Shown here one piece after another: positions 48,001-51,000 of a DNA stretch of 57,943 nucleotides; the stretch's first letter is position 1, and the number at the start of each line of letters is the position of its first letter. The stretch is from positions 1-57,943 of IMG/VR virus record IMGVR_UViG_643348545_000013; one strand, given 5' to 3'. This stretch comes from a virus. Its lineage: Duplodnaviria > Heunggongvirae > Uroviricota > Caudoviricetes. The position numbers are program-made.

Positions 48001-51000
48001 TTGAAACCAAATTCAAGATATAATTTGGGTATTATGGTAATCCCCGCGCACCTAATTATAAAAAAAGGTGAGGAAATTCAATTCCCTGACGGCTCTTCGG
48101 AATCAGTTTCACTTTTCATCGATACGAAAGATAGCCATTTTGAAACAGGGGTTGGCGGACAGGTAATAGTAACATTGAAAGAAATTAGGGTCCCAGCTAA
48201 AGGGCTGTATAGTGTTATAGGGATATTGCAAGATAATGAAGACCCTAAAAATGAACTTCATAAAAATGAATCATTTTTCACCGTAGAGCTATTATGAGTG
48301 ACGACAGTAATTTAAATAATCATGGAAAGCAAGACACCAACATATCTGAAAGCCGGAGGTTGAAGGTTGTTGGCGGTTCCGATTTTGAGGCTGAATTTGA
48401 TAATTCTCCCACCAAGGTGCAAAATAATTACATAAAACCGCCACAAACGGAGGAAGAAGTGGGAACGATCAGCAGAGAGGAACTTGATGCTCGCTTAGCT
48501 GCTAATAAAGCAGAGATGGAGTCTATTGCTTCTTCCATTAGGACTGACATGGCTCTATCTCGTGAAAGCGTTAATGTCCAATTTGCATCACTTAATGCAG
48601 CCATAAGCTCTCTATCGTCCAAGATCGATGGAAAGATGGATAGCGCTGCTGGCGATATAAAAGCAATTAATGGGAGATTCGAAGGAATTCAAGGACAAAT
48701 AACAGGGGTTAATACCGCAATTAGTGGTGTTCAGTCGGGTATTTCTATACGATTAGCCATTTTTAGTGTCATTATCGCTGTAATAGTTGCGATTCCCGGG
48801 CTGGTATCAGCTTTAAAGTCAGACCACGCACCTTTGCAACAGCCTTCCACTTTGCAAGCGCCGCCACAAAATACCCAGCCAACAGACAACAAAAAAATCA
48901 CTCCCCAGCATTAACGCATTAACCCGGCCTCAGCGCCGGGTTTTTTGTTGCCTGCACATAACTATCAGGACAGCACCTGCCAGCCAGCCCAAGCCTCTGA
49001 TTAAATTACTATAATTCTTAATACAACTCCCATATCCCGCCATCTCGTCACCACCTACTTCGCTCGTTTTTCGAACTTTTCAGCACACCATCCTGCTGTT
49101 TCCCCCGCCTTAAGTAAGCAAACCCATCGCGGGGAAAACTATTTACACAAAAAAATCATACACATAACGTGTCACACCCTTATTTTACACATTTTGTGAT
49201 TGACCATTAAATCACAATATGTGACTATTATTTCCATCAGCAGGACGCTGGTAGCCAAACGGAAAAGATTGGCAGGCTCTTTAAACAACGTCGAACACTC
49301 GACTACGTGGCTGAAAAGCCAGATCACCCAACCACATAAGCTGTGGGATGCAATGCCGAAGCAACCGTCTCAGGAGGAGCTTCGAGATTGCATCGCCAAA
49401 GTTTATTCGGGAGGAATCTATGTCCAGAAAAACAGAATTTAAAGGCACCGCAGCTTCTCGCCGTAGAGCTCGTCGCGCAAACCTGCAAAGTCAGGAGTCG
49501 ATTAGCTCCGACAAGCTACACAGGCCAACCCCTTCACGAGTGGTCTTGCAATGCAAGCGCAAACCAGCAATGAGAGCAGAAGTTATAACTCTGACAACGT
49601 TGACCAGAAAATATGAAGGTTCAACTTGTCTTCCAAACGTAGCCATTTACGCTGCAGGCTACCGTAAATCCAAACAACTGACAGCAAGATGACTTGTGTT
49701 GGTCGCCAGAAAATGAAATTAGGCAGCAAACCACTTATTTGAGAGGAATTAATATGTCATCAATCCGCTTAACTACGAGAATGAAAGAGGAAATCGCTCG
49801 TAACGCTTTAATTAAGTCCGGGGTGTTCACTGAACTTGAAGAAGTAACAAAGTTAAAGAACCAGCTTGCACTTGACGCCAGAGTTATTGCGTTTGGCGGG
49901 AAAAAGAAAACCGAAGAAGTGGACCAGCTGGCATCAAAGTTAATGGCTGCAAGTGAGGAACTTCAAAAGCTGGGATGTTCATTTTACTCATGCGATGTCA
50001 GTTCATGTTCGATTTATCTGACTGTATCTGGAAGAAGGGTTGGCTGGCATTCATACGGAAAAGACGGCAACGGTGAAGATATATTGCTCCCTACCCCCGA
50101 CAAAGATAAGTGCATGTTTGACGCAGAACACAAAATAACAAAAAGGTTTGATGAAATCTGCGCATTGCAACAAAAACTTGAAGCCAGGAAAAAGGATATA
50201 GAATCAAACGTATGGGCTGCTTTGAACTCAGTCACAACAGTTAAGCGACTTATTGAAGTTTGGCCTGAAAGCAAAGAGTTGCTACCAAAAGAAGCAGATA
50301 AAGCAAGTGCAGCACTTCCTGCTTTACGGGTAGAAGATTTGAATAAGATGATTGGACTTCCTTCCGAGGCCGCATAATCGGCCTTTATTTTTGGCATAAA
50401 CAACAGAATAAACACTGCACTGTGTATTCATTCCAACGAGTGAATACACGGAGCAATGTCGCTCGTAACTAAACAGGAGCCGACTTGTTCTGATTATTGG
50501 AAATCTTCTTTGCCCTCCAATGTGAGGGCTTTTTTATATGCATACCAATAACGCTTCACTAGAGGCGTTTTCGTTATGTGTAAATAAATAAGGAGCACAC
50601 CATGCAATATGCCATTGCAGGGTGGCCTGTTGCTGGCTGCCCTTCCGAATCTTTACTTGAACGAATCACCCGTAAATTACGTGACGGATGGAAACGCCTT
50701 ATCGACATACTTAATCAGCCAGGAGTTCCCAAAAATGGATAAAACACTTATGGCTATCCAGACTAAATTCACTATCGCCACTTTTATTGGTGATGAAAAG
50801 ATGTTTCGTGAAGCCGTCGACGCTTATAAAAAATGGATATTAATACTGAAACTGAGATCAAGCAAAAGCATTCACTAACCCCTTTCCTGTTTTCCTAATC
50901 AGCCCGGCATTTCGCGGGCGATATTTTCACAGCTATTTCAGGAGTTCAGCCATGAACGCTTATTACATTCAGGATCGTCTTGAGGCTCAGAGCTGGGCGC

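Follow-up and report, generated by a model that had tools for sequence, protein, structure and literature searches.

An Nmad5-family gene in the early-left operon of a lambdoid phage and its possible role as a non-enzymatic accessory protein

What does the gene that directly follows N in the early-left (pL) operon of a lambdoid phage do, and does the name of its family describe it? We addressed this for a 207-amino-acid (aa) gene at positions 49754-50377 of IMG/VR virus record IMGVR_UViG_643348545_000013, all 57,943 nucleotides (nt) of which were analyzed and are referred to here as the window. A first-pass annotation had placed this gene at the ral/sieB position of the pL operon, could recognize no family for it, and proposed a host-takeover, anti-restriction, or exclusion function. 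The gene is in fact already known, being a named RefSeq gene and a member of the curated Pfam family Nmad5; it is neither a discovery nor a surprise, and the question lies in the function of the family. The label ‘putative nucleotide modification protein’ sits on thousands of prophage genes and has little support in this clade. We tentatively favor another reading, to which we would give slightly less than an even chance: that Nmad5 is here an immediate-early, non-enzymatic accessory protein that binds a conserved component of the host or of its defenses.

Family identity and the origin of the name

The protein matches Nmad5 (PF18757) at 231.9 bits, against a cut-off of 27 (E=1e-68), with residues 4-203 covering profile positions 1-206 of 206; it also matches phrog_1965, whose function is unknown, at E=3.2e-81. 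The first-pass view that it had no recognizable family therefore does not hold. No other Pfam family rose above noise, NCBIfam returned nothing, PADLOC gave no match at E≤1, and no homology to a characterized housekeeping-type protein, the kind of relative that the first-pass annotation had set against its own proposal, came to light. In a 99.5%-identical Escherichia coli prophage that adjoins mlrA/yehW, RefSeq/PGAP names the gene ‘Nmad5 family putative nucleotide modification protein’ (WP_000095078.1).

The family was reportedly defined by Iyer et al. 2013 in a computational gene-neighborhood study rather than by experiments. That study is the sole source cited for a modification role of Nmad5 in PMC11846954, and Nmad5 is listed in an M6-type thymidine-hypermodification cassette in PMC9476957; the literature repeats the label as ‘a DNA modification enzyme’. 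Our literature searches returned no match for PF18757, IPR040835, or phrog_1965, and nothing relevant on further work with the Tmn defense system (discussed below) or on phages mEp235 and PhiR12.

The open reading frame (ORF) runs on the plus strand from an ATG at 49754 to a TAA at 50375-50377, and the ATG follows a Shine-Dalgarno sequence (GAGAGGA, 49741-49747) after 6 nt, in agreement with the good ribosome-binding site (RBS) described at first pass. An alternative in-frame TTG at 49694, the start chosen in the annotation of phage Kapi1, would give 227 aa. We rejected it: the N-termini of homologues begin at MSSIRLT and three related loci carry other sequence 5′ of the RBS, and ATG 49754 is therefore the start. 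Selection on the gene is purifying, with a ratio of nonsynonymous to synonymous polymorphism (pN/pS) of 0.25 over 60 distinct alleles, and homologues number in the thousands; this is thus a real, functional coding gene. Divided into three segments, the gene gives pN/pS values of 0.16-0.40, with none above 0.40, and positive selection as the signature of an arms race was rejected on these grounds. Its G+C content is 42% versus 51% for the window. In the central third (codons 51-125, window 49904-50128) the same 60 alleles have a pS of 0.19 versus 0.04-0.07 in the flanks, a pattern that suggests a mosaic formed by intragenic recombination. Within the gene there is also a 133-aa antisense ORF (window 50014-50415, minus strand), most likely spurious given the purifying selection on the plus-strand frame and the family match.

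Examination of 136 diverse members shows conservation of at least 90% at R5, I14, A18, R43, G48, G93, T162, L166, W170, P171, E172, L176, P178, L196, N197, and G201, and at no other position. The signature motif is T162-x-K164-R165-L166-I-x-x-W170-P171-E172 followed by L196-N197-x-x-I-G201-L-P203; R5, R43, T162, L166, W170-P171-E172, L196-N197, and G201 are all present in the window protein. No catalytic-type constellation of His, Asp, Cys, or Lys is conserved across these members. The family forms 2,656 clusters at 50% identity, and the best 150 representatives (95-229 aa, most 190-220) are matched essentially end to end; we looked for informative domain fusions among these 150 and found none. 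The window protein thus shares a stand-alone architecture of about 200 aa with PF18757/PHROG 1965 members such as M6 ORF056 and Dhillonvirus BF9 gp17, together with the C-terminal WPE...DLN..IGLP motif and, as predicted, the fold.

Structure prediction, a check proposed at first pass, gave a model with a predicted local distance difference test score (pLDDT) of 91.5, which consists of a helical bundle and a beta-hairpin and has no relative in the PDB. No enzyme-like fold, recognizable DNA-binding fold, or transmembrane segment is apparent in this model. The protein (about 23 kDa, isoelectric point (pI) 6.8) has 32 acidic and 32 basic residues, and we rejected DNA mimicry because it is charge-neutral.

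Position within the pL operon

A lambda-type immunity and early region is present in the window in inverted orientation and has the following features.

45428-46366, minus strand: O, which starts the order O, cII, cro-like gene, cI-like S24 repressor
47165-47812, plus strand: cI-like S24 repressor, followed by two ORFs at the rex position, N, Nmad5, cIII/kil, gam, bet, and exo
49172-49234, plus strand: OL operator repeats and putative pL promoter (TTGACC, 17 nt, GACTAT; hexamers read from the sequence)
49278-49320, plus strand: nutL-like site, with boxA-like GCTCTTTAACAA and boxB hairpin GGCTGAAAAGCC at 49309-49320
49420-49692, plus strand: N antiterminator gene, 90 aa from ATG 49420, with GGAGGA upstream of the ATG
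49693-49753, plus strand: 61-nt leader that includes the Nmad5 RBS, unstructured, moving together with the Nmad5 gene
49754-50377, plus strand: Nmad5-family gene, 207 aa, downstream of OL/pL, nutL, and N and before cIII/kil
50366-50394, plus strand: terminator-like hairpin and U-run (scan site 50366-50385; 7 bp, -11 kcal/mol) overlapping the Nmad5 stop codon
50512-50529, plus strand: hairpin and U-run before cIII (folding z=-3.69)
50550-50569, plus strand: hairpin and U-run before cIII (folding z=-3.38), within the interval 50512-50575 like the preceding one
50602-50878, plus strand: cIII/kil, 3′ of Nmad5

A 33-nt repeat is common to the OL region (49172-49223) and the OR region (47077-47109), palindromic half-sites lie in OL at 49188-49223, and the pL-like promoter overlaps the operator repeat. 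A consensus promoter scan did not call this site, and its assignment as pL is a probable one made from the sequence. On the pR side, a 20-nt inverted copy of the nutL-like site (46783-46802, 90% complementary) mirrors it, and we therefore take the two sites to be nutL and nutR. The N gene is identified by Pfam N_peptide (PF25694, E=1.2e-31, residues 23-114 of a 114-aa ORF). Among 80 related loci, at least two different N alleles have the 61-nt leader after their stop codon; the leader shows no significant structure on folding (z=+0.59), and a pattern scan found no terminator in it between N and Nmad5.

The hairpin at the Nmad5 stop codon is present in all 80 related loci, although a U•U mismatch weakens it in 8. 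Covariation does not support it: the sole double change creates a U•U mismatch and so is not compensatory. We predict that this hairpin acts as a terminator. N and Nmad5 both lie upstream of the first terminator-like hairpins, and they would therefore make up the part of the pL transcript that is closest to the promoter and independent of antitermination. In this arrangement pL would transcribe Nmad5 together with N, and synthesis of Nmad5 would begin as soon as infection or induction starts, with no need for antitermination by N. Further downstream, the cIII ORF of the window has just 46 aa; it is overlapped by an 89-aa ORF whose C-terminal part is the Kil domain (Pfam Lambda_Kil, residues 44-74).

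The ral/sieB position assigned at first pass is borne out: Nmad5 fills the variable region bounded by N and cIII, and a genuine ral (PF11058) lies directly 5′ of it in 5 of the 80 related loci (L016, L033, L035, L046, and L063). In L016, where the order is N, ral, Nmad5, ral (9764-9961, 162.5 bits) has its own hairpin and T-run that reach the Nmad5 RBS; the window has no ral. Because the two genes stand in tandem in these loci, Ral and Nmad5 are not simple alternatives, and we rejected the idea that they are mutually exclusive. Lambda Ral occupies the same operon and the same variable region right after N, and both are small, non-essential early genes; however, Ral has 66 aa versus 207 for Nmad5 and the two have no sequence relationship. 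The window protein gave no match to PF11058 at E≤1, with the L016 Ral ORF at the aforementioned score as positive control.

Genomic neighborhoods and the modification hypothesis

In close E. coli relatives (92-100% identity) the Nmad5 cassette stands behind N genes of at least three types and cI genes of several; the N stop codon marks its exact boundary, and the hairpin at its end moves with the gene. Homologues that are 42-79% identical occur in Klebsiella, Providencia, Serratia, Pantoea, Cronobacter, and one metagenomic contig, always in the order S24 repressor, zero to two small genes (an N peptide, an HNH gene, or nothing), Nmad5, and unrelated cargo. The P22-like phage Kapi1 has the same order of repressor, small genes, Nmad5, and cargo. 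The constant feature of Nmad5 in temperate Enterobacterales phages, across at least seven genera, is thus its position after a CI-type repressor. In a Providencia alcalifaciens prophage (L254, 13130-13891), Nmad5 heads an early-left operon that also contains DUF2800, an Enc34-type single-stranded DNA (ssDNA)-binding protein, a family A DNA polymerase, and a CAP12-PCTIR TIR-domain gene.

In other phages, Nmad5 behaves like a moron. Dhillonviruses have it as a lone opposite-strand gene within the head operon, ZRG1 has it between terminase and portal, and a Vibrio myophage within the tail module; in C130_2 it stands ahead of the lysis genes. An element of the IS3 insertion sequence (IS) family splits it in Stx2a-converting phages, and Nmad5 is therefore dispensable; 48 Stx2a records gave a match, and the Stx2a-converting phages among those listed (H7-H14 and H32) have the same split. 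In one such phage (Stx2_06E050, LC616075.1 10000-14500; locus L249, approximately 1588-2940) the gene is broken after about codon 37. The insert encodes a 108-aa OrfA and a 296-aa DDE transposase and is presumably IS629-like.

If the family name were right, Nmad5 would be a non-catalytic or cryptically catalytic component of a modification pathway, acting here with a DpdA-like gene to place 7-deazaguanine in phage DNA. That gene (250 aa, window 52868-53620, plus strand) lies right after exo and DUF1317 in the same operon, 2.5 kb downstream of Nmad5. It matches phrog_887 ‘queuine tRNA-ribosyltransferase’ (E=9e-99) and is 68% identical to gp54 of Salmonella phage SPN3UB, in which the order is DpdA-like, Eaa, Nmad5; it has no Pfam match, and PGAP labels its counterpart in the 99.5%-identical prophage ‘hypothetical protein’. 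The SPN3UB order and the phrog_887 match raised the idea of an obligate partnership, and the membership of Nmad5 in the M6-like thymidine-hypermodification cassette likewise favors a modification role. Counts across loci led us to reject the partnership: the DpdA-like gene occurs in 3 of 80 Nmad5-seeded loci and Nmad5 in 1 of 80 DpdA-seeded loci, against a background of 6 DpdA-like genes in 79 Bet-seeded lambdoid loci. Co-occurrence is at background level, the link is therefore not upheld, and the DpdA-like gene is a mosaic module independent of Nmad5.

The cassette comparison gave a similar answer. When the M6-cassette proteins were compared with the window by tblastn, the Nmad5 gene alone was matched, with no ThyX, and we rejected membership in an M6-type cassette because no other cassette gene is in the window. 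No modification genes adjoin the homologues in six other genera, and most prophage contexts are alike in this respect. The window gene likewise lacks consistent linkage to base-modifying enzymes (aGPT-Pplase, 5-hmdU kinase, pyrimidine hydroxymethylase, or DpdA). In contrast to the M6-like gene inside its cassette, Nmad5 in the window and in temperate Enterobacterales phages is promoter-proximal in pL and has no linked modification pathway. Taken with the lack of a conserved catalytic-type constellation and of an enzyme-like fold in the model, these results lend no support to the window protein acting as an enzyme or in a modification pathway, and we consider such a role improbable. As for the DpdA-like gene itself, some of the lambdoid prophages that carry it may insert 7-deazaguanine into their own DNA by way of host preQ0.

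A possible binding surface and its target

Genetic evidence comes from the Dhillonviruses, where a K-to-E change in Nmad5 leads to escape from the Tmn defense system, deletion of the gene gives no escape, and the gene could not be cloned, owing to apparent toxicity (PMC11846954). That a charge reversal alters the Tmn outcome and deletion does not fits a binding surface with alterable specificity. The Nmad5 proteins of BF9 and SECphi18 have 254 aa and match PF18757 over its full length; in the alignment their K216 falls opposite R165 of the window protein, a residue of the signature motif that belongs to the basic pair of T-x-K-[KR]-L-I-x-x-W-P-E.

We propose that Nmad5 would work through binding rather than catalysis. 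The basic T-x-K-[KR]-L-I-x-x-W-P-E helix and a tethered C-terminal L-P-A-x(4)-D-L-N-x-x-I-G-L-P segment would make up the binding surface. Its target would be a conserved component of the host, with a DNA-associated or defense-related protein as the most plausible candidate, and binding would benefit the phage. T7 gene 0.3 (Ocr) offers a functional analogy only: its product is made first, is not an enzyme, can be dispensed with in permissive hosts, and is variably present among relatives, features that Nmad5 may share. Unlike Ocr, Nmad5 is not acidic and is no DNA mimic (pI 6.8, 32/32 residues), and the folds are unrelated; Ocr is an anti-defense protein, whereas no Nmad5 member has been shown to have anti-defense activity. 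The function suggested at first pass (host takeover, anti-restriction, or exclusion) therefore survives in part: an accessory role fits the moron-like placement, the IS split, the predicted non-enzymatic fold, and the Tmn genetics, but the protein is not Ral, and no anti-restriction or exclusion activity has been shown in any member.

Several points weigh against an early-acting binder of a host or defense protein. Neither a biochemical activity nor a binding partner has been demonstrated for any Nmad5 member, and PADLOC (no match) and searches of Pfam, PHROGs, and the PDB revealed no likeness to a characterized anti-defense protein. Diversifying selection is not apparent among the E. coli alleles (pN/pS 0.16-0.40), and very different phages share a strongly conserved motif, so that a conserved core target fits at least as well as an arms-race target. 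The mapping of K216 onto R165 assumes that the PhiSMA8 protein is in the same 254-aa frame as those of BF9 and SECphi18. The terminator calls rest on pattern scans and folding only, and the stop-codon hairpin is only moderate on folding (z=-1.74). Finally, in N4-like and M6-like phages Nmad5 has a fixed place in the replication/nucleotide-metabolism modules, which suggests a role in DNA metabolism.

Such a role would make Nmad5 a replication or recombination accessory that binds phage DNA or a component of the replisome or recombination machinery (for example SSB, clamp, exonuclease, or annealase) and aids early DNA metabolism, with no defense target. Its neighbors in the N4-like phage SP-058 are ThyX, DNA polymerase, exonuclease, primase, Sak4, and SSB, and in M6 it adjoins a dUMP-hydroxymethylase-type gene near the polymerase. 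Its operon also contains gam/bet/exo in the window, recT in Kapi1 and Cronobacter, and DUF2800, an ssDNA-binding protein, and PolA in Providencia; both the conservation of the motif across phage types and the purifying selection agree with this idea. However, in several phages the gene lies within head or tail modules, far from replication genes; the prophage genes downstream of it are unrelated between genera; it is dispensable; and the protein is charge-neutral (pI 6.8), with no recognizable DNA-binding fold in the model. On balance we think a replication or recombination role unlikely, if worth keeping in mind.

The reported cloning toxicity could also reflect an abortive-infection effector, and lambda sieB lies between N and cIII, in the slot that Nmad5 fills here. 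Nmad5 might then shield a lysogen from other phages in the manner of SieB or Rex. Yet no promoter-like site other than pL, which lysogens repress, was found 5′ of Nmad5, and the family is common in virulent phages (N4-like, M6-like, and Dhillonvirus). Neither Pfam nor PADLOC (E≤1), where we assume a SieB model to be present, gave a match to SieB or to another known exclusion or defense profile, and the structure model has no transmembrane segment. We regard prophage exclusion or defense as very improbable.

The binding proposal that we favor for the window protein can be extended to the family, in a form that we hold to be possible but rather doubtful. Nmad5 proteins would then be misnamed, and would be widespread non-enzymatic phage effectors with a fold unseen in the PDB. 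In temperate Enterobacterales phages they would come first or second among the products of the early-left operon, and they would bind a conserved target in the host or its defenses through the T-x-K-[KR]-L...W-P-E surface; the K-to-E change of Tmn escape would be a specificity switch there. The family is common, its fold is unsolved, toxicity in E. coli has been reported, and genetics connect it to Tmn, which makes it a reasonable target for a simple experiment.

One further observation concerns the immunity region. At the rexA/rexB position after cI, two overlapping ORFs of low G+C content (47809-48297 and 48294-48914, plus strand; 39% and 43%) are followed by a strong terminator at 48921-48942. 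They have no significant Pfam or PADLOC match and correspond to phrog_5893 and phrog_5820, both of unknown function; we consider them a candidate exclusion or defense pair expressed in the lysogen.
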